A stretch of DNA of 64,000 nt from a virus. Position numbers and translations under genes: made by a program. The stretch lies in IMG/VR virus record IMGVR_UViG_3300021431_000125. One strand, given 5' to 3'. Shown one piece after another: positions 3,249 through 63,515 of this stretch (position 1 is its first letter; every line of letters starts with the position of its first letter). Under the pieces are notes generated by a model. The model was not told where the DNA came from. It saw only the letters and a program-made list of their open reading frames with translations, and ran no database searches.

Positions 3249-3275
3249 TATAACCGAATTTAACTTGTTTTTTCC
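3249..3275 (-). promoter_or_regulatory. class-I promoter-like element GGAAAAAA-N12-GGTTATA (mRNA sense)
   Basis: plus strand TATAACC-N12-TTTTTTCC; 5 nt upstream of ATG 3243; 28/29 identical to copy at 3544. Confidence 0.55.
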
Positions 3276-3543: not shown

Positions 3544-3570
3544 TATAACCGAATTTAACTCGTTTTTTCC
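3544..3570 (-). promoter_or_regulatory. class-I promoter-like element
   Basis: TATAACC-N12-TTTTTTCC; abuts annotated ATG 3543. Confidence 0.55.
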
Positions 3571-7470: not shown

Positions 7471-7773
7471 TTAATATATAAGGAGTTCATATCCTAAAGA
7501 TTCTATGTAATCCCCGATTTCTGATATACTAAAATCACTCAATTTTTGATGATAGTATTTCCCAATTTCCCTGTTTTTCTCATTCTCTTTAAAAAACGTA
7601 GCTCTTTCATACTCATCCATGGATAACAGGATATCTTCAAGACACACGTTTACGTGTTCAGCGCCATCCTGTTCCAGTTTCTGCTTTTCATATAGCGGAA
7701 GTGTATCGATAATTTTTTTCAGATTGATTAATGTATTCATGACTATATAACCGTTTTTATGATGTTTTTTCAT
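7471..7773 (-). CDS. hypothetical protein (start 7773 or 7740; track extends to 7815 through promoter elements)
   Basis: ORF track; class-I and class-II promoter elements lie in the annotated 5' end. Confidence 0.45.
   Translation of the reverse strand: MKKHHKNGYIVMNTLINLKKIIDTLPLYEKQKLEQDGAEHVNVCLEDILLSMDEYERATFFKENEKNREIGKYYHQKLSDFSISEIGDYIESLGYELLIY
7746..7771 (-). promoter_or_regulatory. class-I promoter-like element
   Basis: TATAACC-N12-TTTTTTC. Confidence 0.5.
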
Positions 7774-8672: not shown

Positions 8673-9305
8673 TTATAGCACAAGGTTGCTCTGTATATTT
8701 TCATTATCAAGATTTTTAAGTTGGTTAATAAGGGTTGTTATGTATTCTACAGCCCCTTTGCTTTTATAGTGTATCTCTTTTTCGGTTTCTGTTGAATTCT
8801 GGTCTATCGGAAACATCATTTCTTCATAAAACCGTTTCCAACTTCTTAGATGCATCAATAACTCGTCGACATCAAAATACAGTTTTTCTTTGAGTGGCGG
8901 GTTTTTTTCCTTTTCTAAGACCTTGTTGTAAACTTCCTCAAAATCGTTTAAATTGAAAGGTGTCATCTTATTGATTTTATAGCATTTTAAACCAAGCTTG
9001 TTACCGATTAATATTCTTACAATGTAAAGATATTCGATATCCCAGCTTATGTTATATACGTTTTCATAACCGCTGTCAATTGAACATATTGATTTTGCGA
9101 CATCGTCTATAGTAAAGAGAGACTTGTCGTTCTGTATGTACTTCTCCAGTTGGTTTTCAAGTTTTTTACCGACACCTGCTGGATAACCGTCATAGTGATG
9201 GTATATGTACGTCGGGCAAATCCTACTGCCTTCTTGCTCTATGATAATACTACATCTGGTTGCTATTGCCATATCATTTGTTTTTAATCGGAAGTTTTTT
9301 GACAA
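8673..9305 (-). CDS. hypothetical protein
   Basis: ORF track. Confidence 0.5.
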   Translation of the reverse strand: MSKNFRLKTNDMAIATRCSIIIEQEGSRICPTYIYHHYDGYPAGVGKKLENQLEKYIQNDKSLFTIDDVAKSICSIDSGYENVYNISWDIEYLYIVRILIGNKLGLKCYKINKMTPFNLNDFEEVYNKVLEKEKNPPLKEKLYFDVDELLMHLRSWKRFYEEMMFPIDQNSTETEKEIHYKSKGAVEYITTLINQLKNLDNENIQSNLVL

Positions 9306-10200: not shown

Positions 10201-10826
10201 TGTCCGTCTTTTTTAATAAGTTCAAAACTATAAGCATACATGTAAGGATTTTCATCCCAAAACTGGTTTCCGTTGATTTTCTTAATAAGGCATTCAAACG
10301 CTTCTTTGGCTGTTGGAAACCATTGCCTACTGGTGTATTTTGGTGTATGTATATCAAACGCATATTTCGGAAGACCGTTTTCCTCCTGCACTTTATCAAT
10401 GAAAATACCTTCTCTCATACAGTCTTCCTCACTAATATCCTGCAGTTTTTCAAGTTTCACATCAGTGACTCTAAGAAAATGCTGCATATACTGACCACTG
10501 ACAAACATCTTGTTATTCCAGCCTGGTAATTCATGAACAGGATAATAACCAGTTATAGTAATACCGTCAAATGTTTTAGAGCCAAATATAAGTGTGTCTG
10601 GTTCACTGTAAAGACTTTCAATTTCTTTGTATGGCTGGGCAACCCCAAGTACATAATCCACATTATACCACGGTTTCTTGAATTGTCCGTTCCATATCAG
10701 TTCCTGATTCTCATTTTCAACCAGTATCTTGTGAGCACGTCTTCTGGTCATTGTCTTAGTACCGTTAAGTACTGCCTGTTGAAGACCGTATTTGGTGCTG
10801 AACATAATTTTATTAATATTAGCCAT
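10197..10826 (-). CDS. ASCH (PUA-like) domain protein
   Basis: N-terminal IMFSTKYGLQQAVLNGTKTMTRR fits ASCH GxKTxExR signature. Confidence 0.55.
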   Translation of the reverse strand: MANINKIMFSTKYGLQQAVLNGTKTMTRRRAHKILVENENQELIWNGQFKKPWYNVDYVLGVAQPYKEIESLYSEPDTLIFGSKTFDGITITGYYPVHELPGWNNKMFVSGQYMQHFLRVTDVKLEKLQDISEEDCMREGIFIDKVQEENGLPKYAFDIHTPKYTSRQWFPTAKEAFECLIKKINGNQFWDENPYMYAYSFELIKKDGQ

Positions 10827-11739
10827 TGTTTTTATGTTTTAATATATCATTTTTAATATTAAACCAAGCATGGTTAAGCATGAATGGTATATTTTTATCC
10901 GTACTGCCATACAATCCACATGAGAAGAAATCATGGCATTCCAATACCCAAGTACCTTTATTGGTTACAGCAACATCAAGGGTATAAGCCTCTGGTGCCT
11001 CAGTGTATTGGTCAATGAATTGATAAATTCTGTCAGCTTTAGGAAACACGAATGGGTCACCAGAATAATTCTTTACGTCAATACCTTTTCCTTTATATAC
11101 AAACACACGCCATTCTGACTCAATATCTTCCAATATTGTTGATACCTGGCAATTGGTAAATGCTTCGAATGACCTATGGTGGAAAATCTTATGCACTTGG
11201 TAACCATTATGCATTCTGGCTTCCAAAGTCATGTATTTATCATATAAATCAGGAATCACATCATAGAAACCGTTGCGTTCATCCTTAATAGTATCAAGTG
11301 ACTTAACAAAGAAACGATTAGAGTTTTTATCATTCAACGGTAAATGCATGTTTACATAACCAAAGTAATTGTAAACATCTTCACCAGACATAAGATTACG
11401 GCATATTCTACCTGAATACAGTTCAGGCATCAATTGCTCAGGCACGTTAATAGGTTTTGGGAAGTAATCAGTACCAAACACCTGCTTAGCAAATTCTTTT
11501 ACAAATTCAACACTACCGACTGGAGTGATGTCTGTAACATCTGATGCATCTTCATTTTCAGATGACTTATGTGTATCGACAAATCTTTTAATGTTTTCCA
11601 ATAAACAAAAGTCAATATCCATTGCTGACTGTTGTGAACCGCCATATAGCCAACTGTAATATTCACTGAGTTCAATCAAAGTTTTTGAAAAATCATGAAT
11701 AACCCGTCCATGATTGTCTATTTGTATCAAAAATTTCAT
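10819..11739 (-). CDS. hypothetical protein, weak ATP-grasp-like C-terminal pattern
   Basis: WRVFVYKGKGIDV ... YTLDVAVTNKGTWVLECHDF resembles ATP-grasp C-domain; weak. Confidence 0.5.
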   Translation of the reverse strand: MKFLIQIDNHGRVIHDFSKTLIELSEYYSWLYGGSQQSAMDIDFCLLENIKRFVDTHKSSENEDASDVTDITPVGSVEFVKEFAKQVFGTDYFPKPINVPEQLMPELYSGRICRNLMSGEDVYNYFGYVNMHLPLNDKNSNRFFVKSLDTIKDERNGFYDVIPDLYDKYMTLEARMHNGYQVHKIFHHRSFEAFTNCQVSTILEDIESEWRVFVYKGKGIDVKNYSGDPFVFPKADRIYQFIDQYTEAPEAYTLDVAVTNKGTWVLECHDFFSCGLYGSTDKNIPFMLNHAWFNIKNDILKHKNNG

Positions 11740-12578: not shown

Positions 12579-13526
12579 TTATTGTTCAAAAGTCTTTATA
12601 TATACTTCCTTGATTGCCATCCACCCTTCATCGTTTAGTTTACGGGTTCCGATTCCAGCAAAGTTCTTTGTTAAAACAGGGGTATCGCTTCTCTCCCATT
12701 TTCCGTCGCTGTATCTGCCCCAAACACATTTATCCTGGTCATAGAAATTGACAATTTTTCCTGTGTCAATAGCCATCTGGACAGCCCATCCTGTACCACC
12801 GTCAACCACTTTGTTTTTGAAGTGACCGACTGCAAATATTTCCTCTGCATTTTTCACCTGCATCCAGTTTCTGGCTAAAAGGTTCATGTATTTGTAAGGC
12901 TGCCTGTGAAGCGTCTCATTTGCCTTTAGAACGTGTTTCTTGCCTTCCTCGAACTCTTCCTCACTAATCTCGTGATTTCCGTTCTCCGTGCGTTTTCCGT
13001 GCCAATAATGCTCTGAAACCACACCGTATTGACCACCGATTTCGCCCCACACGGTATCACTGCCGACAGCGCCGCCAGAATGGTTTACATACGTACCCTT
13101 ATAATTGAGCATCTGACAGAAAATATCATGCCACTCCTCGGAGAAACAGATGTTGTTGGGTACAGGATATGCAGTGAACATTTCAACCATTTCACCCCCA
13201 GTGTAACCGTTAAGTGTCGTCTCGTTTATCTTGTTCCGATAGGCGACTTTAAACAGTTTGTCTGGCATTGACCTGGCTACCTTGTACAGGGTCTGTATAT
13301 TGGAGATAATGTCTTTTTCGGATATGGTTCTGTACCCTTTGATTCTGAGGTCTTTTGTTGGCAATGCATATGAATTCCCCTGAAGACCTTCCCCTATTCC
13401 GTAAACAGCCCCGAACTTTTCTTTGGCTACTTTAGCTGAGCCTGCACCATGCCTGCCCTCTGGATTGCTGCCGAAGACAAATATGGTGTTATTGTTTGAT
13501 TCGATTTCACCTTGATAAAATTTCAT
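12579..13526 (-). CDS. tandem SLOG/DprA-like Rossmann-fold protein
   Basis: two halves each with G-S-x-x-x-G-x-(H/V)G-x-x-(S/A) (IFVFGSNPEGRHGAGSAKVA; VNHSGGAVGSDTVWGEIG); second half continues LARNW...GGTGWAVQMAIDTGKIV like DprA/Smf. Confidence 0.55.
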   Translation of the reverse strand: MKFYQGEIESNNNTIFVFGSNPEGRHGAGSAKVAKEKFGAVYGIGEGLQGNSYALPTKDLRIKGYRTISEKDIISNIQTLYKVARSMPDKLFKVAYRNKINETTLNGYTGGEMVEMFTAYPVPNNICFSEEWHDIFCQMLNYKGTYVNHSGGAVGSDTVWGEIGGQYGVVSEHYWHGKRTENGNHEISEEEFEEGKKHVLKANETLHRQPYKYMNLLARNWMQVKNAEEIFAVGHFKNKVVDGGTGWAVQMAIDTGKIVNFYDQDKCVWGRYSDGKWERSDTPVLTKNFAGIGTRKLNDEGWMAIKEVYIKTFEQ

Positions 13527-13754: not shown

Positions 13755-14192
13755 TCAGTTTTTAGGGTTATTAATTTCGTTTAGAATTTTCTTCACATTA
13801 GTTTTAAGGTCTGCTGTTCTGTCTTTGTATTCATTCACAAGCCGCTCCAGGTCTTCTGTTCCGATTTCATTTTTGACAATCGCGCTTTTATATTGTGTTG
13901 CCAACAGAAAAGCCATAATTCCATTAGGCAATGGGTTGAAAATGTTGTCCCAACAATCCTGTGTGTTGTATTTGCACCCATCAAGAGATTCATTCATGCA
14001 ACCTTTACACTTGTCGTCAAACTTGGATTTCATCCATGGTTCCAGTTTGCTGACATCCACCGACAGCCTGGACGGGTCTTTCGGAAAATCCTCCAGATAT
14101 TCGTTTTTGTCTAGATAATATCCGTTGAACAGTTTACGGATACGCCTTTTACAGTTTCTTAAACTAGTGAAAAAATCCATAATAAATATCAA
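13755..14192 (-). CDS. hypothetical protein
   Basis: ORF track. Confidence 0.5.
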   Translation of the reverse strand: MIFIMDFFTSLRNCKRRIRKLFNGYYLDKNEYLEDFPKDPSRLSVDVSKLEPWMKSKFDDKCKGCMNESLDGCKYNTQDCWDNIFNPLPNGIMAFLLATQYKSAIVKNEIGTEDLERLVNEYKDRTADLKTNVKKILNEINNPKN

Positions 14193-15025
14193 TTGTGTTT
14201 TAAATACAGGCTTTCATATACATTGTCATGTGTTTTGCCCTTTAGCCGTTTGAATGAACTGTTTCCGCTTTTAATGTACAAATGTTCACTATACAGCTCT
14301 TTCGGTATGTCAATCGTCATGTTGTCCTCACCGCTTACACCATCGTAGCTGAAGGCATATGAGCACTTGGCTGCAGACATGTAGCCGAAAAACTCTTTCT
14401 GGGAAAAGCATGAATCGTACATGCCTTTGGTGTTCGCGTATGGTGGGTCAAGATATATGAAATCATTCTCGTTTGTCGGGTTAATCTGTTTATAGTCAAC
14501 ACACATAAAGACAACATTGTTCCGATTAAATGCTTCCGACCAACCTTCAAGTATGTTTTCAAAAGTCTCTGGTATGATACCATCACGATTCATGTGATAA
14601 GGCGAATTGAACTCGCCTTTTGAATTATAGCGTATCAGCCCGTTATAACACATTCTGTTCAAGACTATGAAATCAAAGGGGTTATGGTCTTTGTTGAATT
14701 TATCCCTAAGTTTGCTATAAAACTCACTTTTGTCGGCGACACTATCCAATTGTTTCATAGCAAACCACATCATTGCATAGTATGCTGACAATGATTTATG
14801 ATTATCTTTAATCAAGTTCAAGACAGAAATCAAGTCTTCGTTATGGTCAGTTAACACATATCTTCCTACCTTATGTTCACTATCCATAAGTGCTCTGGCA
14901 ACAGAACAGCCCCCACAGAAAGGCTCGTAGTAGGTAGTGATTTCTGTAGGGAATTTTGATATGATTTCAGATGCCTGGCTCCTTTTGGAACCCGACCATT
15001 TGATTACAGGTGGAATTGTTTTCAT
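14189..15025 (-). CDS. Dam-family (D12 class) N6-adenine DNA methyltransferase
   Basis: IKWSGSKR, FCGGCSV (motif I), IYLDPPY (motif IV). Confidence 0.85.
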   Translation of the reverse strand: MKTIPPVIKWSGSKRSQASEIISKFPTEITTYYEPFCGGCSVARALMDSEHKVGRYVLTDHNEDLISVLNLIKDNHKSLSAYYAMMWFAMKQLDSVADKSEFYSKLRDKFNKDHNPFDFIVLNRMCYNGLIRYNSKGEFNSPYHMNRDGIIPETFENILEGWSEAFNRNNVVFMCVDYKQINPTNENDFIYLDPPYANTKGMYDSCFSQKEFFGYMSAAKCSYAFSYDGVSGEDNMTIDIPKELYSEHLYIKSGNSSFKRLKGKTHDNVYESLYLKHN

Positions 15026-15360
15026 TAAGCTATTTTTATCTGTTTTTTGCTAACATCTGGTTTTGGGTGTGGCACTTCATCAAAATTCAGTTCATCCAAA
15101 GCATCATATATCTTTTTGATATTTGAAATTGATTCTCTATTTGTACACCAAAGGGTTTCAGTTATTGAGTTACTGCCACTAACTTTATATCTGATATTCA
15201 ATTCTCCAATCAAAAGGTTTCCAACCCTTACACTTGGGTCAAAGAACACATTTGTTATTTCTGGTGTTATTTCAACCAATTCCTGGGAATCATAAGCCTT
15301 TAATTCATCGCCATCATATACTTTAATTATCGTGTCTAACAGTATGTACTTTGATTTCAT
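15025..15360 (-). CDS. hypothetical protein
   Basis: ORF track. Confidence 0.5.
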   Translation of the reverse strand: MKSKYILLDTIIKVYDGDELKAYDSQELVEITPEITNVFFDPSVRVGNLLIGELNIRYKVSGSNSITETLWCTNRESISNIKKIYDALDELNFDEVPHPKPDVSKKQIKIA

Positions 15361-15800
15361 AGTTCACGTTTTGATTGTCTGTCAATATCCCTCTCTTTAA
15401 TATCCCTGCGCTTGTCGTATGTTTTTTTGCCACTGGCAATAGCAACCACCACTTTGCACATGTTTCTCTCATTGATGAAAAGTTTATATGGCACAACAGT
15501 CATTCCTTTGATTTTAACCTGTTCGTATATTTTCTTCAATTCACTTTTGTTCAAGAGCAGTTTCCTGTCCCTGTTGTAATCCTTGACTGTATACGTGTCG
15601 TGTTCACGTTTTGGAGTCACCACCGAATTTTTGAGAAACAACTCATTTCCAACAAAATGGCAATAAGATTCAGAAATGTTGACACGCCCATCTCTGATTG
15701 CGCTGATTTCCGCGCCGTTCAACACAATGCCAGCAATATAGGTATCCTTGAACTCATAGTTGAAACTTGCCTTTTTGTTTGTAATTTCAAATCTTTTCAT
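15357..15800 (-). CDS. smpB: SsrA-binding protein SmpB
   Basis: NKKASFNYEFKDTYIAGIVLNGAEISAIRDGRVNI and C-terminal tail GKKTYDKRRDIKERDIDRQ match SmpB throughout; 147 aa. Confidence 0.85.
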   Translation of the reverse strand: MKRFEITNKKASFNYEFKDTYIAGIVLNGAEISAIRDGRVNISESYCHFVGNELFLKNSVVTPKREHDTYTVKDYNRDRKLLLNKSELKKIYEQVKIKGMTVVPYKLFINERNMCKVVVAIASGKKTYDKRRDIKERDIDRQSKREL

Positions 15801-16246
15801 CTTTTATCTGATATGTCTTTAACCACACCGAAACCGTCTTTCACGCAATTAATCACTAACTGTGCTGCGGCATATATTGGATATTCACTGTAGCATACAT
15901 ATGGAGTACTGTCAGGGGCTTCCTGGTATTGGGCAAAATAAAACGGTGCATCTTTCCAGAAAATCAACCCCTTGTATTCAGGGTGCCATTCGATTAGTTT
16001 ATACTGTAGTTCCGATAGTGTATATGTAGGTGTAAACGGATAATTCATTTGCTCAGCCAACGACTTGTCTTCAGAGACATATTCTGTTCCATCGAAATCG
16101 ATTATCCAATATTTGTTGTCACCCATGGGAACACCGCTATCAACGAATTTCTGCATCCATTCCTTATTCAGGAAATCTTGTTCTATTTTATCCGATAATC
16201 TTAGCATAACACAGCTTATTATATTACAATAACCGAAATTGTGCAA
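15797..16246 (-). CDS. hypothetical protein
   Basis: ORF track. Confidence 0.5.
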   Translation of the reverse strand: MHNFGYCNIISCVMLRLSDKIEQDFLNKEWMQKFVDSGVPMGDNKYWIIDFDGTEYVSEDKSLAEQMNYPFTPTYTLSELQYKLIEWHPEYKGLIFWKDAPFYFAQYQEAPDSTPYVCYSEYPIYAAAQLVINCVKDGFGVVKDISDKR

Positions 16247-16264
16247 CTTTTTCCACGATTCCTG

Positions 16265-19461: not shown

Positions 19462-20397
19462 TTAAAACAATTCAAATTTAACAAGCGCGTCAGTTAGCTT
19501 ATCCAGGTCGCAACTCCAATGGCTTTTGTTATATGAGGCGTAATAGTCATTTACCTTGTAATCCTCGATTTCGCAACAATCCGCCCGAATTCCCTTGTAT
19601 GTCAGGAAAGGAATTGCTGGATAAAGTATTGTCAGTAATTTGTCAAATTCGTCAAACTCACACGGTTTATCGCCACCGACCGACTGTTCGTGACCGTCAT
19701 ATGACCATTCAGTGCCACCAGTTATCCACGGTTCACCATATAAAAAGTTGCCTTTGACACAAAAACCGACTTGGTTGGCAGCACTATAGACATAAGCTCT
19801 TGTACGTTCAGCACTGTCAGCTTCATATACATTCCAGATTTCACGGTGTTTGCTTTCAACCAAAATATCACACTCAATATCCAGACTATTGGCAATTTTG
19901 GCTGAAGCCACCGCTTTTATTTTCTCCACATCGACAGGTTCAAAAATACAGGTTTCTATTGTGGATTTTGCACTGCGAGTCGGATTGGCGAATGACCTTA
20001 TCATGTCGTTTTTGATACACAGTTCGCGGTTATCGTCAAAATCTATAATGGTGAATTTGTACGAACTATCGTGTAACATGCAATGATAACGGTTGACCAA
20101 AGTGTATATCAGATTAGCCAAATCATTGTTAGTCAAACACAAGCAATCGACAAATACCGTGGCTTTTTCTGGTTTGTACGAAAACCATATGCTGTCGTCA
20201 TATGAACGCTCATAATTTGCTGTAAAAACAGCCTCTCTAAGACGTTCTTCAAGTTTTTTAATTGAACAATCATATGTACTATCCAAATTCAAGTATTCAG
20301 CCTCTTCTTTTTTCTGAAGCTTTTCGCTAACCAAACGCTTGAAAAGCGTGGTTTTACCACTGCCTGGCAATCCATGTGCAATCAAAAACTTTTTCAT
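19462..20397 (-). CDS. P-loop kinase, polynucleotide-kinase (T4 Pnk N-domain)-like, with unassigned C-terminal domain
   Basis: N-terminal FLIAHGLPGSGKTTLFKRL Walker A as in Pnk/zeta-type kinases; class-I promoter 30 nt upstream. Confidence 0.6.
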   Translation of the reverse strand: MKKFLIAHGLPGSGKTTLFKRLVSEKLQKKEEAEYLNLDSTYDCSIKKLEERLREAVFTANYERSYDDSIWFSYKPEKATVFVDCLCLTNNDLANLIYTLVNRYHCMLHDSSYKFTIIDFDDNRELCIKNDMIRSFANPTRSAKSTIETCIFEPVDVEKIKAVASAKIANSLDIECDILVESKHREIWNVYEADSAERTRAYVYSAANQVGFCVKGNFLYGEPWITGGTEWSYDGHEQSVGGDKPCEFDEFDKLLTILYPAIPFLTYKGIRADCCEIEDYKVNDYYASYNKSHWSCDLDKLTDALVKFELF

Positions 20398-20426: not shown

Positions 20427-20453
20427 TATAACCGTATCTTAGTTATTTTTTCC
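20427..20453 (-). promoter_or_regulatory. class-I promoter-like element upstream of Pnk-like kinase gene
   Basis: TATAACC-N12-TTTTTTCC; 30 nt to ATG 20397. Confidence 0.6.
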
Positions 20454-22763: not shown

Positions 22764-23063
22764 TCAGATTTCTTCACTTATTACGATGGCTCCTTGTATC
22801 CATATGCGTTTACCGTCAAGGTCGAAGAACACCTGGTTGTCCGCACCGTCGTCACGTATGTCGAATTTGCCTTTGTATGTCCTGATGGTATCTCCGTTAT
22901 AACTGTATACCGTCAATGTACGGTTGAGACCGCCACCCCAGTCACTGCCAATGCTTTTTATTTCACGTTTGCAGCTTTGTGGACCAAAAGCAAAAAATAC
23001 AAAAACCAAACCAACGATAATAAGTATAACCACAAAAATACCAAAAAATGTTCTTTTTTTCAT
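22764..23063 (-). CDS. small N-terminally membrane-anchored protein immediately downstream of sigma factor
   Basis: FFGIFVVILIIVGLVFVFFAF TM then ~70-aa soluble domain; start overlaps sigma stop. Confidence 0.5.
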   Translation of the reverse strand: MKKRTFFGIFVVILIIVGLVFVFFAFGPQSCKREIKSIGSDWGGGLNRTLTVYSYNGDTIRTYKGKFDIRDDGADNQVFFDLDGKRIWIQGAIVISEEI

Positions 23064-23599
23064 ATTCTAAAATATTTTCCGTAATTAAAATTCAATTTGT
23101 CTTTAATCCTATAATATCTGGACTTGATTGTACTTTCGGGCATCCCAAACATTTTGGAAATCTCCTTGAATGTATATTCGTCGATAGCGACAAGATTCAC
23201 CAAAGTACGTTCCTCTTCAGTCAGGCAGCGCATGATTTTCAGAATCAAGTCCTGTTTCTCATAATCGGTAGCCAAATCAAAATCGTCGCTTAATTCAGGA
23301 AGGAATTCACTCTCTATTGGAAGATACCGATACTTCATATCCTTCTTGTAGCGGTTAATGATTTGCCTCATAATTATCCTGTGCATCCATCCCTCAAAGG
23401 TTCCGTCACCCCTGTATTTTTTGATATTGGCAAATATTGACACGAAACCTTCAACCAACACATCCTGGGCAATGTCATCGTCAGCCGAATATCGTCGGCA
23501 TAAAGCATAAAACTTAGGACTGTACTTGTCATATAAGGCTCGTTGCATTGAAGGGTTGTTGTTTCGACACCCTTCTATAATGTTGTCTATATTATCCAT
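23060..23599 (-). CDS. ECF-type (sigma-70 family group 4) RNA polymerase sigma factor
   Basis: region 2 ALYDKYSPKFYALCRRYS..DIAQDVLVEGFVSIF...FEGWMHRIIMRQIINRYKK and region 4 LTEEERTLVNLVAIDEYTFKEISKMFGMPESTIKSRYYRIKDKL. Confidence 0.85.
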   Translation of the reverse strand: MDNIDNIIEGCRNNNPSMQRALYDKYSPKFYALCRRYSADDDIAQDVLVEGFVSIFANIKKYRGDGTFEGWMHRIIMRQIINRYKKDMKYRYLPIESEFLPELSDDFDLATDYEKQDLILKIMRCLTEEERTLVNLVAIDEYTFKEISKMFGMPESTIKSRYYRIKDKLNFNYGKYFRI

Positions 23600-23608: not shown

Positions 23609-23878
23609 TTAAAGCGATTTCCAAACCACAACGCTATCAAAACTACAAGAGTCATAATACACAACGCGCAATTCCGTGTTGCCGCGATACACATCGATTG
23701 CCTGGGGTTCTTTATTGTAAGCTGAAATAACCCACAAAATGATAGCCAAGCCGACCAGATTGAACAGGAAACTCCATATCATGATTATGATTGGAATGTT
23801 TTGACTTTTGAATGACAACAAATATCCCAAGCACCCAATGCATATGAAACTTATCGCTATAAATAAAAGTATTGTCAT
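23609..23878 (-). CDS. small membrane protein (2 TM)
   Basis: hydrophobic segments. Confidence 0.45.
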   Translation of the reverse strand: MTILLFIAISFICIGCLGYLLSFKSQNIPIIIMIWSFLFNLVGLAIILWVISAYNKEPQAIDVYRGNTELRVVYYDSCSFDSVVVWKSL

Positions 23879-24189
23879 TTGGCGTCGTAATATATCATGT
23901 TTTCCACAGAGTATTCACCATAGTTTTGATGGTAATCGCTGTTCAATTTCTTGCACCTTTTCTCGGCTTCCTTTTTTGTATGCCCACGGCTCCATATGCA
24001 GTCAAAGTACCCGTTCCTGTATCTGACAATCCCCCACACAGGGGCTTTATCCATGTCAATGTCCAGTAATGTGGTAGGATTGCCGTTGGCTGTTTTGGGT
24101 TTCTGAGTATCAGTTTCCGTCTCCTTGTTGGATGACCCGAACAAGAAACCGACTATAAAACTAATGACTATTAATAATAAAATATGCAT
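23875..24189 (-). CDS. small membrane-anchored protein
   Basis: N-terminal TM LLLIVISFIVGFLF. Confidence 0.45.
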   Translation of the reverse strand: MHILLLIVISFIVGFLFGSSNKETETDTQKPKTANGNPTTLLDIDMDKAPVWGIVRYRNGYFDCIWSRGHTKKEAEKRCKKLNSDYHQNYGEYSVENMIYYDAK

Positions 24190-24204: not shown

Positions 24205-25518
24205 TCAATTGGTAGAGCTTTTCATGGGGTTGGCGCAAAAACCTATTCTTTTTTTAACCTTGTTGAGTGTACTAGTACCGCCTACGGGATTACTGGAATA
24301 TGAATATGGCTTAACATCTTCAGTATCAGGGTCATCATAACAATAATTAATCCCAAACTCATCTTCATTAACGTCACGTAATGGGTTGGTTTTTTCAGTA
24401 ACACTAAAATTGACTGTCATGTAATCTGGAGTCAGGTTTCTGTAATATATGATAAGGTCTTTGACTGCCTGGTCTGTGACTGAAGATACATTCATCCATT
24501 CAATGTCAATGTCTTTAGAATCAACATACAATCCATATTCTTTACTGTATTTCAAATCATCAACTTTGAAATTACAAGTACCCAAACGATTCCATGCCTT
24601 AGGCTGGTTCAATTCACAACGAACACATTTGTTCGAAAACGGTGTATAAAAAAACTGACTTACAAGCCTGTCACCATTGGCGAACATTAAATTAAGGGAA
24701 CCTCGCCTTTCTTCATTGTAACCGATATTCAAATCGTCAAAGGTGTCAATAAGACTGTATCCATTGTTAAGTTCAAACACAAGACTGCGTAGGCAATCAT
24801 AGTTCAAAGCGTTTACATAGGCAAACAAAGTTATCCTATCAACGCTCTCAATACATTTCTCAGTATTGATATTGTCGTGCATGTAGTCGGCAATGTCATC
24901 ATATTTCGGTTCAGAGAACGAAAAACTGTAGTGAAAACGACCAGGTCTGTTGTATATGTATTGTGACAGGTTCGAAACGTTGTTGCAGGTTATGATAAAC
25001 ATCTTTTTGGTCATGTTGATGCCGTCAAAAGTGGACAACATTTCATTTTGTGCACTCCCGCGTTGCTCATCATGTACAAACATTTTCTCAAATTCATCAA
25101 ACAGGAAAACACATTCCTGGCTAATCTGTGTCATAAATGTTGGTAAAGACGGGTGATAGAAATTCACGTTGATTACAGGATAGCCAGCGTTTATCATGTT
25201 GATACACATTTGCTTGGCGAATAAAGTTTTACCATTGCCCTTGTTACCCACAAGCATGATACCTAAGCTGCGGTTGAACTCCTTGTAGGTCTTCATACAC
25301 TTGGCGATTTTGTTCTGGTCGCTCCCATAGACTTTTCCGTTGATTTCAGGTCTGGTTGTCTTTACTACGAAAGGACCGTTGTCATCCACCATAAACTGGT
25401 AAAAGTCAGGTTCAAACTGGTCGTAAACCTCAATGTTTTCACCATATACTCTGTATTTGCCTTCTGTCTTTATTATTTGCATAGTTCTATTTTTTTTTCT
25501 ATTAACATTAATATACAA
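24205..25518 (-). CDS. classical AAA-family ATPase (start more likely internal Met at 25482)
   Basis: Walker A LVGNKGNGKT, Walker B VFLFDEFEK, sensor-2-like NRPGRF. Confidence 0.8.
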   Translation of the reverse strand: MYINVNRKKNRTMQIIKTEGKYRVYGENIEVYDQFEPDFYQFMVDDNGPFVVKTTRPEINGKVYGSDQNKIAKCMKTYKEFNRSLGIMLVGNKGNGKTLFAKQMCINMINAGYPVINVNFYHPSLPTFMTQISQECVFLFDEFEKMFVHDEQRGSAQNEMLSTFDGINMTKKMFIITCNNVSNLSQYIYNRPGRFHYSFSFSEPKYDDIADYMHDNINTEKCIESVDRITLFAYVNALNYDCLRSLVFELNNGYSLIDTFDDLNIGYNEERRGSLNLMFANGDRLVSQFFYTPFSNKCVRCELNQPKAWNRLGTCNFKVDDLKYSKEYGLYVDSKDIDIEWMNVSSVTDQAVKDLIIYYRNLTPDYMTVNFSVTEKTNPLRDVNEDEFGINYCYDDPDTEDVKPYSYSSNPVGGTSTLNKVKKRIGFCANPMKSSTN

Positions 25519-25523
25519 ATTTT
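25508..25523 (-). promoter_or_regulatory. class-II extended -10-like element upstream of AAA ATPase
   Basis: mRNA sense AAAATTTGTATATTAA, 26 nt before Met 25482. Confidence 0.4.
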
Positions 25524-26359: not shown

Positions 26360-26737
26360 TTATAAACATTTCAATGACTTTAAATATGAATTCAAATATG
26401 AAAGTATGTTTTCCCTTCCGTCTGGATTGGATGAATGGCATTCGAATTTCGGTAACGGCATGTTGTATTTCATACAAGTCTCAACCAAGACTTTCGCACA
26501 GTCAAGTCCAGTCTTTTCTTCACCCAAATCGTGGTCGAAGCAAACCAGCGCGGGAAACAGTTCCGCAGGGTCGTCCATAACCTTTGACATCCAGTCACAG
26601 AATTTTTCATATGTTTTAATCCACACGACCGCAGGTTCACCTTTAAAATCGTGTGAGTTTTTCTGTATCACTGGATACCAGTCGTAACTGAAAGGATTCC
26701 TCCTGTCATCTAACCATATAACCAAATTGTTGAACAT
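26360..26737 (-). CDS. hypothetical protein
   Basis: ORF track. Confidence 0.5.
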   Translation of the reverse strand: MFNNLVIWLDDRRNPFSYDWYPVIQKNSHDFKGEPAVVWIKTYEKFCDWMSKVMDDPAELFPALVCFDHDLGEEKTGLDCAKVLVETCMKYNMPLPKFECHSSNPDGRENILSYLNSYLKSLKCL

Positions 26738-26780
26738 ATGCCTTTATAACCGAAATATGTCTGTTTTTTCTGTGATTTTG

Positions 26781-27809
26781 TCATTTAATTGGTATCAGTG
26801 TTTCGGAATCAACATCCAATTGTCTGCAATTGTATTTAACAGCCTCCCTTGATGCGTTGGCATAACAATATATACAGAAATGCGGACAAGTGTTGTATGC
26901 CCCTATATCTTTGCTTAACATGCACCCACATTCCTTCCGTTGTCCTCTGTCTTTCCACCAATTGGTTGATACTTTATCGATAGACAATAACCCGCCATAA
27001 TTCAGAAAATTCAAAAAGGAAATATCATTAGCTGCAATTTTCTTGAATTGCTCACTGTCAATACACCTGTTATGCTGGATACCATATTGTTCAAGGTTGA
27101 ACTTTTCGCCACAGGTAGCCAGTTCAATCTCCCAGCCATCCTCTTTCCATTTGTCGCGTAGAGCGGCTATTCTGGACGCTACGGCATTCATCAGGTCTGG
27201 GGTGTATTCACTGTCCAGTATCGTTTCGTTGGTGAAACCGTTGCCGTATTTTAATAGGTTGGTTTGGACTTTTTTGTAGCAGTTGATGTCAACAAAACTG
27301 AAAACAAGTTTGTTTGTATACCCCTTTATTTTGTTTCCAATGTTTTCAATCCTGCCGATGAGTTCATCCTGGTTCATCGGCATAAGCGGGTCAAACCGCC
27401 AGATTACCCTGTCGGCCCCTACAGTATTCGACAAGTTGATAAATGTCTCAATACGCTTGTCAAGCGGCGGCAAATTCGGTTCAAACCCCTCTTTTTCATA
27501 GTCGTTCAAAGTGTATTGGAAATATGTGTGTATACCCTGCTCGTCAAGTTCCTTTTGGAAATCTATGATTTCCTTGTGGGGATTCTTTGTCCAGAACACA
27601 ATACCTTTCACTTTCTCATATGATATATATTGAGGTATGTTAGTATAAGGGTTGTTCCATACAGAATAGCCTGCTTTCCAACGGTTCATGAACCAGTTGA
27701 AATGAAAAGCGGGAATATCGGTGGAACGGCTGACGGACAATATGACAGGTGCTATAGCATCAACTGTATTGCCGTTCGGTAGTGTGAGTTTAACTTTTTC
27801 GTGCGTCAT
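26781..27809 (-). CDS. hypothetical protein with C-terminal Cys cluster (DUF1848-like, low confidence)
   Basis: CGCMLSKDIGAYNTCPHFCIYCYAN. Confidence 0.55.
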   Translation of the reverse strand: MTHEKVKLTLPNGNTVDAIAPVILSVSRSTDIPAFHFNWFMNRWKAGYSVWNNPYTNIPQYISYEKVKGIVFWTKNPHKEIIDFQKELDEQGIHTYFQYTLNDYEKEGFEPNLPPLDKRIETFINLSNTVGADRVIWRFDPLMPMNQDELIGRIENIGNKIKGYTNKLVFSFVDINCYKKVQTNLLKYGNGFTNETILDSEYTPDLMNAVASRIAALRDKWKEDGWEIELATCGEKFNLEQYGIQHNRCIDSEQFKKIAANDISFLNFLNYGGLLSIDKVSTNWWKDRGQRKECGCMLSKDIGAYNTCPHFCIYCYANASREAVKYNCRQLDVDSETLIPIK

Positions 27810-30434: not shown

Positions 30435-30452
30435 TATAATATACAAAAATTT
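30435..30452 (-). promoter_or_regulatory. class-II extended -10-like element
   Basis: mRNA sense AAAATTTTTGTATATTAT, ~50 nt before ATG 30382. Confidence 0.35.
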
Positions 30453-30455: not shown

Positions 30456-31250
30456 TTATTCAACGGGTTTTGGACAAAGTTTCACCAACTCGCTTCTCAA
30501 ATTGTTGAATTTTTCCTGGTACTTCTCCTTATAATAGTCCCATGTGGGGGTTTCAGCATTTTTTATTTCCCACCACAAATCGTTGGCGCATGAATAATCG
30601 TATATCTTGCCAGTCTGTGCAATCTGTATTGCAAACATGTAGATGCGCATTGAGTGCCACAGCGATTTTTGTCCAATCCTTAAATCATAGTCTTTTTCAA
30701 CAGTCAGCTTTTTCTTGGCTTTTACCCACGAATTACTGCAGACAGCCGATACCGATTCACGCAGTTTCCATTTGTCAAGTTTGAAATACTCCTGGTACAT
30801 GCCTTTCGAATCACCTTTCAGGGTCGGTGAAAAAATACACTCCAAGGCGGCTATATCGTGTTTTTCAATTTGTGCAATGAAGTCTTTTTCACACACAAAC
30901 TGATAGTCTACGTTGGCAAATTTATCTTTATATTCGAAAATATGTCTTGGATATTGCGACAGCAAATTATAAAAACTGTCGGGTACCACCACTAAAAAGT
31001 CAGTATCTGAAACGCCTTTTTCATAAGTACCATATACACGAGACCCACGGGCAACAGCGAACAAATATGTGGCGCTTTCAAGCTCATTGACCAATTCTGT
31101 TTCATATTTGTCAACATATTCATCCAGAATACTTTTCAATACTGGAGTGACGTAACTGTTTTCATGTATATAAGGGCTTGCTGCATTTTTGTTATACAAT
31201 TCCCTTAGGACATCTACCTGTTCCTTCAAGATTTCATATTTGTTTTTCAT
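30456..31250 (-). CDS. predicted nucleotidyltransferase (Pol-beta superfamily; COG3541/pfam10127-like)
   Basis: LFAVARGSRVYGTYEKGVSDTDFLVVV = hG[GS]x9-13DhD NTase signature plus helical C-domain. Confidence 0.6.
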   Translation of the reverse strand: MKNKYEILKEQVDVLRELYNKNAASPYIHENSYVTPVLKSILDEYVDKYETELVNELESATYLFAVARGSRVYGTYEKGVSDTDFLVVVPDSFYNLLSQYPRHIFEYKDKFANVDYQFVCEKDFIAQIEKHDIAALECIFSPTLKGDSKGMYQEYFKLDKWKLRESVSAVCSNSWVKAKKKLTVEKDYDLRIGQKSLWHSMRIYMFAIQIAQTGKIYDYSCANDLWWEIKNAETPTWDYYKEKYQEKFNNLRSELVKLCPKPVE

Positions 31251-31289
31251 GATAATATAACCAATTTCCGCCTGTTTTTTCCTGAAAAT

Positions 31290-34060: not shown

Positions 34061-34999
34061 TTACTTTATGTTCTCAATCATTTCGATATTATCCATGTAC
34101 CACTTGTGGAAATTGTGGTATTCAACATCACCGACTTCATTAACCACATTACGAAGGTCATCGTAGTCACAATGCTTGATTTTGACAATGATGCGGTTAC
34201 CGTGCGGGTCTTTGATTGGGATGACTGGTCTTGCAACAATGCCTTCTTCGATAAAATCAGGATTGTCAACATTAGGAACCTTGGTTTTGAAGCCTTCAAT
34301 CACCATTTTCTCAGCCTCCTCGATAGTCATTTGACCAAGATAAGGGACAACATCCAAACCGAGATTGCCACAGTATTCGTCCAACATATTGATTGGAATC
34401 CACCAACCCTGCTGGTAGATATCAAATACACTGAAACGGTTATTCTCCTTGTCATAGTTGCCGCCGCATTTCTGGATTTTCTTTCCGAAAAACTCGCCAT
34501 AGATGTATACAGGAACCTCTTCCAGCTGTACACCATAGAAATTGCCGTTCACTTTGAAGTCAACCTCATTGATGTTTGCGATAGGTTCACCACACTCAGC
34601 CCAATAATACTGAATCTGGTTTTTGCCATTCAGAACTGGGGTGAAACGGGCACTCTCTGGCGGAAACATTTCAGTCAGGATTGGTTTGATTCGTTCAATA
34701 ACCTGGTCAAGCATGGCTTTCTGACCCGTTCCGACAATATCGGCGTTATCAGTCTTGCCGCCACAGAAACATTCGCCTGTTGATGGAAGATAGATAATTT
34801 TCGAATTCGTACCGTCAATCTTTGAGAAACAGTCGAATTTCAAATCCTTGATATACTCCATGTAATCGTCGGAGAAACAACCCATTATAATTTTGTTTTG
34901 GAATTTAGCCCAAATCTTGTTCGGAAGTTCCACCTTGTTAAGGTTTTTGTAACGACGGTACAAGGTGTTGATTTTAGTATAAGTTAATGTCTTTTGCAT
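34061..34999 (-). CDS. Rnl2-family ATP-dependent RNA ligase (covalent nucleotidyltransferase superfamily)
   Basis: motif I FSKIDGTN (KxDG), III IYGEFFG, IV EGIVARP, V IIVKIKH in correct order and spacing. Confidence 0.75.
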   Translation of the reverse strand: MQKTLTYTKINTLYRRYKNLNKVELPNKIWAKFQNKIIMGCFSDDYMEYIKDLKFDCFSKIDGTNSKIIYLPSTGECFCGGKTDNADIVGTGQKAMLDQVIERIKPILTEMFPPESARFTPVLNGKNQIQYYWAECGEPIANINEVDFKVNGNFYGVQLEEVPVYIYGEFFGKKIQKCGGNYDKENNRFSVFDIYQQGWWIPINMLDEYCGNLGLDVVPYLGQMTIEEAEKMVIEGFKTKVPNVDNPDFIEEGIVARPVIPIKDPHGNRIIVKIKHCDYDDLRNVVNEVGDVEYHNFHKWYMDNIEMIENIK

Positions 35000-35052: not shown

Positions 35053-35826
35053 CTATGCTTTTACTTTGAAAAGCTTTTCAACCGCTTTCTTGGTGTTGGT
35101 GGGGTTCATCGCATTGGTAACCTCCTTGCTCCATATGCACTCGAACCTGTCTTCTGGCATTTCATATTCCGAAACCAGTACAGTGTGCCCCTTTCTTGTC
35201 ATGTCCACACACCAATCATAAAAACGGTCATAGTCAAATCCCCTGGAGAACTGGTATTCCTTGGTGTTCCGATAAGGCGGGTCGCAATATATCAGTGAAT
35301 TGGGCGGAATCTCGATATCGTAATAATCCCCGCTTTGCCATTGCACATCCTGAAGATATGGAACCTGTTTCATTGTGTTGGCGATATTCTCCCTGATGTA
35401 GTCACGTTCCTTGCCGTTTGAGCCCATCACTTTGTGTCCAGAATACCCTCCATCGAAGAAACGACCGTTGAAGGAAGCCATATACCCAACCCAGCCGATA
35501 AGGTCGTCACTGTATTTTCCGTCCTCTACAAAAGTCTTTACCATATCCAGAAACTTCAGGTCGGTTTTTCCGTTGAAACAGTTACGCACATCGGAATAGA
35601 AATCCTTCACTATCTCAGTAGGCATTTTTTTGCCCGCTGTAAGCGATTTCCACATGGCTATAAGGTATTTGTTCTTGTCCGATGCAATACGCGGTTCTGG
35701 GACGTGCTGAAGCACCGAACAGCTGCCACAAAACGGCTCAACATACCGCTGCCCTGGCTTGCGATAGCTCATGATTATAGGCAGAATATCCTTAACAATT
35801 CGGTTTTTGTTACCTTGATATTTCAT
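35053..35826 (-). CDS. second Dam-family (D12 class) N6-adenine DNA methyltransferase
   Basis: YQGNKNR, EPFCGSCSV (motif I), IYCDPPY (motif IV). Confidence 0.8.
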   Translation of the reverse strand: MKYQGNKNRIVKDILPIIMSYRKPGQRYVEPFCGSCSVLQHVPEPRIASDKNKYLIAMWKSLTAGKKMPTEIVKDFYSDVRNCFNGKTDLKFLDMVKTFVEDGKYSDDLIGWVGYMASFNGRFFDGGYSGHKVMGSNGKERDYIRENIANTMKQVPYLQDVQWQSGDYYDIEIPPNSLIYCDPPYRNTKEYQFSRGFDYDRFYDWCVDMTRKGHTVLVSEYEMPEDRFECIWSKEVTNAMNPTNTKKAVEKLFKVKA

Positions 35827-36438: not shown

Positions 36439-36450
36439 TTAATATACAAC
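36439..36450 (-). promoter_or_regulatory. class-II extended -10-like element
   Basis: mRNA sense GTTGTATATTAA, ~35 nt before small ORF ATG 36393. Confidence 0.35.
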
Positions 36451-36462: not shown

Positions 36463-36488
36463 TATAACCGAAAACATTCGGTTTTTTC
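36463..36488 (-). promoter_or_regulatory. class-I promoter-like element just downstream of terminator hairpin
   Basis: TATAACC-N12-TTTTTTC. Confidence 0.55.
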
Positions 36489-36494: not shown

Positions 36495-36521
36495 AATGGA
36501 GGGAATTTTTTCAACCCTCCA
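36495..36521 (-). terminator. factor-independent terminator of gene 36511-37452
   Basis: GGAGGG (36498-36503) / CCCTCC (36515-36520) stem, 11-nt loop, followed on minus strand by ATTTTTGTTG; overlaps stop codon. Confidence 0.55.
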
Positions 36522-37452
36522 GTTTTATGTATTTTGAAAATATACCTTCAGACACTTGTTTATATTGCTGTTCTTTCCTTTTTGCGACATTCCTTTCAAA
36601 TTTCTTATATTGGCTGTTTCTTCCAACCAAATGATTATGATATTGCGGGAAATTGGATATACACCATTGTACAAGAAACCCCAGGGTTTCAAATTCAACT
36701 AATCTTCTACCTGTTATTTCACTATCAACATACCACATTTTCGTTTCATCATCCTGAAATAAGAATATCAAATTTCTGGCACTGGGACCATAAAAAATAA
36801 CTTGATATTGTTGGTCTCCCCAATGGTATATTTGTATACCGCTGGCTTGGAATAATACCGCACAATCGCCATATCCACTCTTTTCAGCAACACTGGCATC
36901 GTCGGCATCAAAAGCAAAATCATACCCCGCACCATACTTGTAGTTTGTTGTACCAATACCTGGGGTATAAGCTAAATTGTCTATATCGACACCATAACTA
37001 AATCCCTCTTTATACAGTCCAGGTATATTGCTGCTACTAGTCATATGAACAAGCCATTCGTTATGTACTTCTCTTCTAAAATCAGCTGCACAGAATAAAG
37101 GTACTTCAGTGTCACCATGATAGCTTACATATTGAATGAAATCCTCACAAAATGGCTTTAAATCAGTCTTGAAATATTCAGATAACGCTTCTGCCATTTC
37201 ATAATCATCCCATTGGAGTATATCTTCAGGAACTTTATCTTGTTCAACCATCTGTTCAATCGTTTCATAAGCATTTTTGTTGTTTTCCAGATAATCACGG
37301 AACAGCCATGGTAGTTTGCAAGCGCATTCCCACGCTTTTTCAGCATCGTCCATGGCAAGAAATTTCTTCAATGGAACCATGTAGTCTTTGTCTAGATATT
37401 CGTTCAACGCCTTTTTTACAATACTGGCTATGTGTTTTTCGTTGATATTCAT
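36511..37452 (-). CDS. hypothetical protein (313 aa), first gene of leftward unit from the divergent control region
   Basis: ORF track; followed by terminator hairpin. Confidence 0.55.
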   Translation of the reverse strand: MNINEKHIASIVKKALNEYLDKDYMVPLKKFLAMDDAEKAWECACKLPWLFRDYLENNKNAYETIEQMVEQDKVPEDILQWDDYEMAEALSEYFKTDLKPFCEDFIQYVSYHGDTEVPLFCAADFRREVHNEWLVHMTSSSNIPGLYKEGFSYGVDIDNLAYTPGIGTTNYKYGAGYDFAFDADDASVAEKSGYGDCAVLFQASGIQIYHWGDQQYQVIFYGPSARNLIFLFQDDETKMWYVDSEITGRRLVEFETLGFLVQWCISNFPQYHNHLVGRNSQYKKFERNVAKRKEQQYKQVSEGIFSKYIKLEG

Positions 37453-37489: not shown

Positions 37490-37510
37490 TCGAGTCTGTG
37501 CAAAAAATTT

Positions 37511-41434: not shown

Positions 41435-41461
41435 TATAACCGAAAACAGCGAATTTTTTCC
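41435..41461 (-). promoter_or_regulatory. class-I promoter-like element
   Basis: TATAACC-N12-TTTTTTCC; 28 nt to ATG 41407. Confidence 0.6.
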
Positions 41462-42467: not shown

Positions 42468-42494
42468 ATATAACCGTTTTCACTCCGTTTTTTC
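42468..42494 (-). promoter_or_regulatory. class-I promoter-like element
   Basis: TATAACC-N12-TTTTTTCC; 29 nt to ATG 42439; flanking 24 bp identical to copy at 63477. Confidence 0.6.
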
Positions 42495-45206: not shown

Positions 45207-45233
45207 TATAACCGAAAACAACGGTTTTTTTCC
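45207..45233 (-). promoter_or_regulatory. class-I promoter-like element
   Basis: TATAACC-N12-TTTTTTCC; 30 nt to ATG 45177. Confidence 0.6.
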
Positions 45234-47192: not shown

Positions 47193-47219
47193 GATAACCG
47201 AAAACAGCCTGTTTTTTCC
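47193..47219 (-). promoter_or_regulatory. class-I promoter-like element (GATAACC variant)
   Basis: GATAACC-N12-TTTTTTCC; 28 nt to ATG 47165. Confidence 0.55.
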
Positions 47220-53306: not shown

Positions 53307-53333
53307 TATAACCAAAATTAAGTAATTTTTTCC
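53307..53333 (-). promoter_or_regulatory. class-I promoter-like element
   Basis: TATAACC-N12-TTTTTTCC; 28 nt to ATG 53279. Confidence 0.6.
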
Positions 53334-54014: not shown

Positions 54015-54040
54015 TATAACCAAAACTTACAAATTTTTTC
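54015..54040 (-). promoter_or_regulatory. class-I promoter-like element
   Basis: TATAACC-N12-TTTTTTC; upstream of small ORF starting 53985. Confidence 0.55.
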
Positions 54041-55128: not shown

Positions 55129-55155
55129 TATAACCAAATTCAGGCTATTTTTTCC
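55129..55155 (-). promoter_or_regulatory. class-I promoter-like element
   Basis: TATAACC-N12-TTTTTTCC; 27 nt to ATG 55102. Confidence 0.6.
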
Positions 55156-56220: not shown

Positions 56221-56247
56221 TATAACCAAATTCAAACTGTTTTTTCC
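56221..56247 (-). promoter_or_regulatory. class-I promoter-like element
   Basis: TATAACC-N12-TTTTTTCC; 35 nt to ATG 56186. Confidence 0.6.
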
Positions 56248-63488: not shown

Positions 63489-63515
63489 TATAACCGTTTT
63501 CTGTCAGTTTTTTCC
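63489..63515 (-). promoter_or_regulatory. class-I promoter-like element
   Basis: TATAACC-N12-TTTTTTCC; 30 nt to ATG 63459. Confidence 0.6.

Follow-up and report, generated by a model that had tools for sequence, protein, structure and literature searches.

Does a phage-encoded sigma factor of the extracytoplasmic function (ECF) type run a transcription program of its own, and is the small membrane protein encoded beside it the anti-sigma factor that gates it? This question is raised by positions 22764 to 23599 of the IMG/VR virus record IMGVR_UViG_3300021431_000125, which was analyzed as one stretch of 64,000 nucleotides (nt), hereafter the window. On the minus strand of this region, the gene of a 179-amino-acid (aa) sigma factor is followed by the gene of a 99-aa protein, and a sequence-only reading had noted that the latter, despite its atypical topology, sits where an anti-sigma factor is usually encoded, and that a virus-encoded ECF sigma factor with 14 matching promoter elements would make a self-contained transcription program. 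The best explanation overall, with a probability of about 0.6, is that of an orphan phage sigma factor with a regulon marked by a conserved promoter-like element (motif 1), accompanied by a 99-aa passenger protein.

The sigma factor

The gene and its two domains are placed as follows:

23060..23599, minus strand: ECF-type (group 4) sigma factor gene, 179 aa (Pfam, TIGR02937, phrog_1740 and phmmer)
23339..23536, minus strand: sigma domain 2, residues 22-87 (Sigma70_r2, PF04542, 1.5e-13), predicted to bind core RNA polymerase and the -10 element
23093..23248, minus strand: sigma domain 4, residues 118-169, helix-turn-helix (Sigma70_r4_2, PF08281, 9.5e-12; PF04545, 8.4e-9), predicted to bind the -35 element

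The product of 23060-23599 is almost certainly a functional-type ECF sigma factor. Both sigma-70 regions named in the sequence-only reading, 2 and 4, are found by the Pfam hidden Markov models, and the general model TIGR02937 (sigma70-ECF) is matched above its cutoff (1.1e-23, 83.6 bits against a cutoff of 42.9), as is the PHROGs family phrog_1740, 'RNA polymerase sigma factor' (1.2e-27). The two domains are joined by a linker of ~30 aa, no region 1 or region 3 is present among the Pfam matches at E≤0.1, and both the length and the two-domain build agree with the ECF family (about 170-220 aa). Against PDB sequences, phmmer gives alignments over almost the full length, of residues 13-169 to Escherichia coli sigmaE (1or7) and of residues 21-169 to Mycobacterium tuberculosis SigE and Bacillus subtilis SigW. 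Judged by its domain content, the protein is thus a canonical minimal two-domain ECF-type sigma factor, here in an uncultivated Bacteroidales phage. The subfamily classification suggested with the earlier reading could be carried as far as the ECF family; the subgroup and equivalog models (SigM, SigW, SigE, Sig70_bacteroi1 and others) all score the protein far under their cutoffs, and therefore no ECF subgroup is assigned.

A word-indexed homologue search with the sigma factor returned 2 clusters only, and orthologues were reached via neighboring genes and an alignment scan. Among orthologues that are 46-51% identical overall, the sequence FEGWMHRI in sigma domain 2 is invariant, and the recognition helix of sigma domain 4, PE(S/N)T(I/V)K(S/T)RYYRI, is kept. 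Searching with tblastn finds only relatives at 23-32% identity (crAss-like 'sigma-W', Atu_ph04). No second sigma factor is encoded within the window.

A promoter-like element with fixed spacing

The loose pattern GAAAAA-N9-16-GGTTAT matches the window 19 times, always on the minus strand, against 0.45 matches expected, and 17 copies have exactly 13 nt between the two blocks, with GAAAAA and GGTTAT invariant. The existence of the promoter-like elements reported earlier was thus borne out, while their number is not 14 but 17 at fixed spacing and 19 with the loose pattern. The consensus of this motif 1 is tTTTacgGAAAAAAc-N10-ttCGGTTATA (gGAAAAAAc-N10-ttCGGTTATA), which can be read as GGAAA-N16-GTT or as GGAAAA-N15-GTTA. 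Considering open reading frames (ORFs) of at least 40 aa, 15 of the 17 copies lie 4-38 nt before an ORF start, and, counted from the last T of GTT, the ATG follows after 9-11 nt at four sites and after 24-38 nt at ten. With GTT placed at about -12 to -10, the shorter class is compatible with leaderless mRNAs, and the longer class would give 5' untranslated regions (UTRs) of ~14-28 nt if transcription starts ~10 nt after GTT; in Bacteroides thetaiotaomicron, the modal 5' UTR length is 23 nt (PMC7366714). Some copies lie close to a second element, motif 2, which is treated below.

3250..3274, minus strand: motif 1
3545..3569, minus strand: motif 1
7747..7771, minus strand: motif 1, with motif 2 immediately upstream at 7777-7787
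16229..16253, minus strand: motif 1 before gene 15797-16207, then the SmpB gene
20428..20452, minus strand: motif 1 downstream of the sigma block, before gene 19462-20397
26746..26770, minus strand: motif 1 nearest upstream of the sigma gene (~3.2 kb), directly before the cREC_REC gene 26360-26737
31257..31281, minus strand: motif 1, GTT to ATG 9 nt, leaderless-compatible
36464..36488, minus strand: motif 1, then motif 2
41436..41460, minus strand: motif 1
42470..42494, minus strand: motif 1
45208..45232, minus strand: motif 1
47194..47218, minus strand: motif 1
53308..53332, minus strand: motif 1
54016..54040, minus strand: motif 1
55130..55154, minus strand: motif 1
56222..56246, minus strand: motif 1
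63490..63514, minus strand: motif 1

In form, motif 1 resembles the promoters of ECF SigE/SigH factors, given for corynebacteria and mycobacteria as GGAAC-N17-18-cGTT (PMC10012870), as well as those of the phage 7-11 sigma factor, and is unlike the Bacteroides sigmaA consensus TTTG/TAnnTTTG. A sigmaA pattern, TTTG-N17-22-TAnnTTTG, is found in the window at chance level (4 against 4.4 expected), and a scan for sigma70-type TTGACA/TATAAT sites gave a marginal and uninformative excess (37 against 28.4 ± 5.9 expected). The sole sigmaA-type match judged convincing is intergenic at 37472-37504 on the minus strand, reads TTTG-N21-TATATTTG and lies upstream of gene 36511-37452. It adjoins the only clear plus-strand genes of the window (37678-38855), where GC content rises locally and the AT skew reverses, and a divergent region, early or regulatory in function, may be located here.

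Across the compared loci (L numbers), the gene strand carries motif 1 in each lineage that has the sigma factor, namely the window, L006 (three copies), L022 (two), L023 (four) and L030 (one), and the syntenic site upstream of the cREC_REC-AAA-sigma block is kept in L006, L023 and L030. No intergenic copy was found in 13 loci carrying a relative of the 99-aa protein without the sigma factor, nor in L031, which has a different, larger sigma factor; the lone match in this set fits the loose pattern only and lies inside coding sequence (L003/L011). Locus L032 (ENA ERZ27256972 k141_4462884, on a 150-kb contig) shows good motif 1 copies at 2581 and 6008, plus one copy of motif 2.

Motif 2 and expression of the sigma factor

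How the sigma factor itself would be expressed is a question of its own. The motif 1 copy at 26746..26770 is a possible positive-feedback promoter for it, and phage 7-11 has been proposed to use a comparable loop (PMC8948821). Between this copy and the sigma gene, the gene strand has a single terminator-like site, a weak hairpin within the gene of an AAA ATPase, and sites of this kind are fewer than chance in the region upstream of the sigma gene. The AAA gene is itself preceded by motif 2, a conserved intergenic element made of an A-tract followed by T(n)TGTATATTA that occurs at five sites on the gene strand of the window; the 11-mer pattern TNTGTATATTA has four matches in the window, all on the minus strand, against 0.40 expected.

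1170-1180, minus strand: motif 2
7777-7787, minus strand: motif 2
25509..25519, minus strand: motif 2 (A-tract plus TTTGTATATTA), ~26 nt before the start codon of the AAA gene, candidate promoter of a second class for the block from AAA to sigma
30437-30447, minus strand: motif 2
about 36440-36448, minus strand: motif 2

Motif 2 often lies 12-20 nt downstream of motif 1 or directly upstream of it, and may represent either another class of promoter or an element of the 5' UTR. It is found too in L006, L022, L026, L030 and L032, and the L006 copy precedes the same AAA-to-sigma block.

The 99-aa neighbor

22764..23063, minus strand: 99-aa small beta-domain protein, probably signal-anchored, derivative of the phrog_2316 family (TM 2-26, beta domain 46-98)

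The gene following the sigma gene does start within its stop codon, as the earlier reading had noted, with the sigma TGA and the ATG of 22764-23063 overlapping as ATGA. Yet the overlap is not special, because 11 of the 141 adjacent gene pairs of the window share such an ATGA (33 pairs overlap in some way). The single N-terminal transmembrane (TM) helix was likewise recovered: in the AlphaFold2 model, built from 81 sequences with a mean predicted local distance difference test (pLDDT) score of 79.8, one hydrophobic helix spans residues 2-26 and is followed by a low-confidence helix (29-43) and five beta strands (46-98). With only ~5 residues (MKKRT) ahead of the TM helix, a cytoplasmic anti-sigma domain could not be accommodated. 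Class I anti-sigma factors carry a helical cytoplasmic N-terminal domain of ~50-90 aa, which the 99-aa protein lacks, and its predicted topology is the reverse of theirs, as the modeled globular domain is outside the cytoplasm. No anti-sigma family was matched, and the Pfam and NCBIfam searches at E≤0.1 gave only sub-threshold matches to DUF5052, DUF3139 and SecDF.

Instead, the protein falls within a large, widespread phage family of small exported proteins and beta-barrel lipoproteins. PHROGs places it in phrog_2316, a word-indexed search yields 83 clusters at 45-94% identity, and a profile search of 1.84 billion representatives yields 666 clusters at E≤1e-3, the matches listed being stand-alone proteins of 52-150 aa. 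In 74 of the 81 aligned members, a lipobox, ...(S/G)C, closes the hydrophobic segment; the family overall thus shows the Cys expected of a signal peptidase II substrate, while the window protein does not. Here, Pro28 takes the place of the lipobox Cys, as Pro does in six close relatives, and the uncharged stretch before that column is longer in Pro members (median run of 19 residues against 16). It follows that the 99-aa protein derives from a lipoprotein family and is probably signal-anchored. Its best fold matches are small lipoproteins. A Foldseek search of the PDB with the 99-aa model gave nothing below E=0.02, and a profile search of PDB sequences gave nothing meaningful. Small phage-encoded lipoproteins and those of the DUF903/YgdI-like or DUF5052-like types are among the closest known systems.

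Nor does the family travel with the sigma factor, as most members lie in phage contexts that lack a nearby sigma gene. A family member is found within 5 kb of the sigma gene in four related lineages only, which are arranged as follows:

Window, L023 and L024: sigma gene and small gene overlap as ATGA
L006-L009: 46-nt gap from sigma gene to small gene
L030: 21-nt gap from sigma gene to small gene
L022: three genes (1.1 kb) between sigma gene and small gene

In 13 other lineages that carry the small protein (L003, L004, L012, L013, L016, L017, L018, L019, L025, L027-L029 and the P0050 contig), no ECF sigma factor is encoded within ±5 kb. One of these 13 is P0007, a member of the same Pro clade, where the small gene follows a cytidylyltransferase gene. 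Distant phage ECF sigma factors (28-33% identical) are likewise without a membrane-protein neighbor. Adjacency to the sigma factor is thus not conserved in the 99-aa family, and where it occurs it is clade-level synteny rather than functional coupling.

Could the two genes nonetheless form a sigma/anti-sigma pair gating the phage program? They are co-directional and overlapping, their adjacency is kept in three lineages (window/L023/L024, L006-L009 and L030), and the loss of the Cys with a longer hydrophobic segment in this clade would favor retention in the inner membrane. Set against the missing cytoplasmic domain, the absence of a matching family, the stand-alone and mostly lipoprotein-like relatives, the sigma-less lineages, the intervening genes of L022 and the commonness of ATGA overlaps in the window, such a pair is extremely improbable. 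The anti-sigma idea, the more unusual part of the earlier finding, is not supported and was dropped. The 99-aa protein is very probably an exported passenger; an envelope role, e.g., superinfection exclusion or receptor masking, is a guess.

The gene block around the sigma factor

On the minus strand, the sigma gene belongs to a run of co-directional genes in the order AAA ATPase, 104 aa, 89 aa, sigma, 99 aa, of which the first three are:

23609..23878, minus strand: 89-aa protein with two hydrophobic segments (2-TM), phmmer orthologues, no Pfam family above threshold
23875..24189, minus strand: 104-aa protein with an N-terminal hydrophobic segment, found in closest relatives only
24205..25482, minus strand: AAA ATPase (phrog_2376), first gene after the motif 2 element, probable start ATG 25482

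The two small membrane proteins that had been placed within 23609-24189 upstream of the sigma gene on the same strand are both there as ORFs with hydrophobic segments. The 104-aa protein has no Pfam match; it is present in L001, L023 and L024 and absent from L006. The 89-aa protein has no informative homology beyond its orthologues in phmmer (7e-30 for L006-L009, 7e-54 for L023/L024), is kept upstream of the sigma gene in three of the four sigma-bearing lineages and beside it in two, and has a conserved C-terminal tail of ~35 aa. The AAA ATPase (Pfam AAA 1.1e-11, nSTAND3 4.9e-8, phrog_2376 4e-80) had been identified correctly, with its start set at TTG 25518. The start is most likely ATG 25482 (MQIIKT), because orthologues are 411-426 aa long and the L006 orthologue starts ATG CAA ATT ATA AAA ACC (MQIIKT).

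The AAA ATPase was considered as a dedicated partner of the sigma factor and rejected: its family counts 840 homologue clusters at E≤1e-10, and in two of three further contexts examined, with homologues 59-62% identical, no ECF sigma factor lies nearby. The L032 homologue has no sigma gene nearby. The ATPase of the window thus belongs to a type that is widespread in phages and shows no consistent link to the sigma factor described here. In L031 (ENA ERZ27297828 k141_714284, 4001-9266), a 59%-identical AAA ATPase is followed by a DnaJ homologue, a NUDIX protein, an IF3 homologue and a large sigma factor with regions 1.2, 2 and 4 that is group-1/3-like, and motif 1 is absent there.

It could still be speculated that the 89-aa 2-TM protein, possibly with the AAA ATPase, tethers the sigma factor to the membrane as a minimal new anti-sigma module. 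In favor of this, the window clade shares the order AAA, 2-TM, sigma with L006-L009, whose sigma factors are 46-48% identical, and the 2-TM protein has its conserved tail. Yet the protein has no homology to any anti-sigma family, the L030 order is AAA, a 106-aa and a 113-aa gene (not identified as homologues), sigma, and in L006 an unrelated soluble gene separates the 2-TM protein from the sigma gene; together with the size of the ATPase family and the two further contexts without a nearby ECF sigma gene, this makes the module very unlikely. Highly improbable, too, is a wider cassette of AAA+ ATPase, 2-TM protein, ECF sigma and ex-lipoprotein acting as a membrane-coupled control module, in which the 2-TM or the anchored beta-domain protein would tether or sense and the ATPase would free the sigma factor, a view drawn from synteny in one phage clade. 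If true, the condition of the host envelope would decide when at least 17 phage promoters are activated.

A proposed mechanism and its rivals

Taken together, the observations fit a mechanism in which the sigma factor would be made from the AAA-to-99-aa block and, as expected from its family, would bind the host core RNA polymerase. It would then direct transcription from gGAAAAAAc-N10-ttCGGTTATA before at least 17 operons of small accessory genes. Its own expression would plausibly be two-step, first from another promoter class (the A-tract and TGTATATTA before the AAA gene) and then by self-amplification via motif 1. As an orphan, the sigma factor would be controlled by the timing of transcription rather than by an anti-sigma factor, and the 99-aa product would be an unrelated passenger acting in the cell envelope. 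That the sigma factor drives motif 1 is probable. A phage-run transcription program, as proposed in the earlier reading, is plausible because the ECF sigma factor coexists with a non-random, strand-specific, ECF-like motif of fixed spacing; it is the link between the two that we infer, from co-occurrence and architecture. Since the small neighbor is not an anti-sigma factor, the program would be of an ordinary phage kind.

Several points weigh against this mechanism. Motif 1 drives what looks like an early or accessory arm and also precedes the sigma factor's own block, and therefore another form of polymerase must start the cascade; motif 2 as that start is a guess. The GGAAA-to-GTT spacing of 16 is 2-3 nt shorter than in the cited actinobacterial ECF promoters, and L032 has motif 1 twice with no sigma gene within its 9 kb. 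The genome measures at least 123 kb and the window 64 kb, so that another sigma factor or RNA polymerase could lie elsewhere. Finally, with Pro in place of Cys, the maturation of the 99-aa protein is uncertain.

Motif 1 could thus be read by a host alternative sigma factor or by a phage sigma factor or RNA polymerase outside the window, while the ECF sigma factor, though real, would serve host genes or late genes elsewhere. The nature of the arm, the motif upstream of the sigma gene, the short spacing, L032 and the at least 59 kb of genome outside the window all favor such a reader, and some phage sigma factors are known to act on host regulons (PMC9429907). In the other direction, sigma factor and motif occur together in all four lineages, the sigma-less loci have no intergenic copy, and the GGAA/GTT elements are ECF-like and unlike the host sigmaA consensus. 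Moreover, the DNA-reading helices are conserved alongside the conserved motif, and the window encodes no other sigma factor. Another reader is possible but rather unlikely, and the orphan phage sigma factor acting on motif 1 is the preferred explanation.

The phage, its host and its accessory genes

Nearly all genes of the window lie on the minus strand, with 92% of the sequence coding. The phage is an uncultivated gut or rumen phage. Its host is most likely a member of the Bacteroidales, because Shine-Dalgarno-like 4-mers precede only 9 of the 142 window genes and homologues of the small protein are found on metagenome-assembled-genome contigs of Paludibacteraceae and Bacteroidales. No match, and thus no near relative, was found by megablast of 8 kb against GenBank phages. 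Within IMG/VR, the window is a close variant of IMGVR_UViG_3300028048_000083 (123 kb), to which its start maps with a register offset of ~112 nt, and its end (63.9 kb) has no exact match there. That contig has an extra site with motif 1 and motif 2 (L026, minus strand, 4858) that is absent from the window, as seen when L026 (contig 76095-86196) is compared with window positions of about 3300-4400. Together, the offset, the extra site and the unmatched end make the window a mosaic close relative rather than that contig itself. Contigs of 99-170 kb exist for this phage clade.

Several accessory genes were noted along the minus strand. An SmpB homologue at 15357-15800 (Pfam SmpB, 1.6e-46) is the second gene after the motif 1 copy at 16229-16253, and an SmpB gene is also present in the relative L023 (17884-18327); scans of the window for tRNA and tmRNA genes (ARAGORN) and for Rfam families found nothing. 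Genes resembling RNA repair or modification functions are located at 3577-4395, 6994-7461, 26360-26737, 26781-27809, 30456-31250 and 34061-34999. This six-gene set comprises a Thg1-like guanylyltransferase, the HAD domain of 'Swiss Army Knife' RNA repair proteins, a cREC_REC cyclic-phosphate receiver domain, DUF1848, a nucleotidyltransferase and an RNA ligase; several of the genes sit behind motif 1 promoters, and the set suggests an arm countering tRNA or RNA damage. The accessory arm further includes genes at 14189-15025, 35053-35826, 39674-40465, 10819-11739 and 12579-13526, among them two Dam-like N6-adenine methyltransferases, an SPFH/Band 7 membrane protein, an R2K-clade ATP-grasp protein and a DprA-like protein.

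Comparison with known systems and significance

Phages are long known to replace or supplement the host sigma factor to time their gene classes, as with SPO1 gp28 and gp33/34 and T4 gp55. These sigma factors are highly divergent, are not ECF-like and use different promoters.

Sigma factor genes are present in about 13% of RefSeq phage genomes (PMC9429907), and the nearest parallels to the system described here are phage 7-11 gp47 and phiEco32 gp36, which are, like the window protein, small phage sigma factors without an anti-sigma factor, and both of which redirect the host RNA polymerase to phage-only promoters. Phage 7-11 has eight late promoters, GTAAtg-N16-aCTA, and phiEco32 six of the form tAATGTAtA, with transcription starting 6-9 bp from the promoter element (PMC8948821, PMC12276001). 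There, a promoter of its own has been proposed to boost the sigma factor; here, one of the 17 copies of GGAAAA-N15-GTTA lies upstream of the sigma gene. The combination that marks those systems, a phage sigma factor and a conserved phage-specific motif before gene blocks, is present in the window as well, judging from sequence alone. Close homology is nevertheless not detectable, as neither phage is found by tblastn with the sigma factor at E≤1e-5. The systems also differ in several respects. While phiEco32 gp36 has no recognizable region 4, the window sigma factor is of the canonical two-domain ECF type, and no cofactor of the phiEco32 gp79 kind was identified here. The hosts of 7-11 and phiEco32 are enterobacterial, whereas that of the window phage belongs, most likely, to the Bacteroidales. 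The 7-11 promoters are late, whereas those of the window would drive an accessory-gene arm and not demonstrably late genes. Finally, 7-11 and phiEco32 have been worked out biochemically, whereas the window system is known only from its DNA.

The bacterial pairs E. coli sigmaE-RseA, B. subtilis SigW-RsiW and M. tuberculosis SigE-RseA share the two-domain sigma architecture, and the likeness extends to a membrane protein gene following the sigma gene and to a candidate promoter of the GGAA/GTT type. The bacterial partners, however, have a cytoplasmic anti-sigma domain of 50-90 aa, whereas the 99-aa protein is without it and is not co-inherited with the sigma factor. The locus thus also holds a negative lesson, in that a gene overlap and a TM helix beside an ECF sigma factor are insufficient for calling an anti-sigma factor.

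That a phage sigma factor may come with its own promoter set is already known, and the window adds an uncharacterized example from a Bacteroidales phage. Few promoter motifs of alternative sigma factors are available for this order, with one for Bacteroides fragilis (EcfO) and none for B. thetaiotaomicron as of 2020. The regulon in the window appears to include the phage SmpB and the RNA-repair-like genes. If validated, motif 1 would help to annotate the transcription units of this phage clade, and the compact sigma factor with its sharp ~27-bp motif in 17 natural variants may serve as an orthogonal sigma/promoter tool for Bacteroides or Prevotella.

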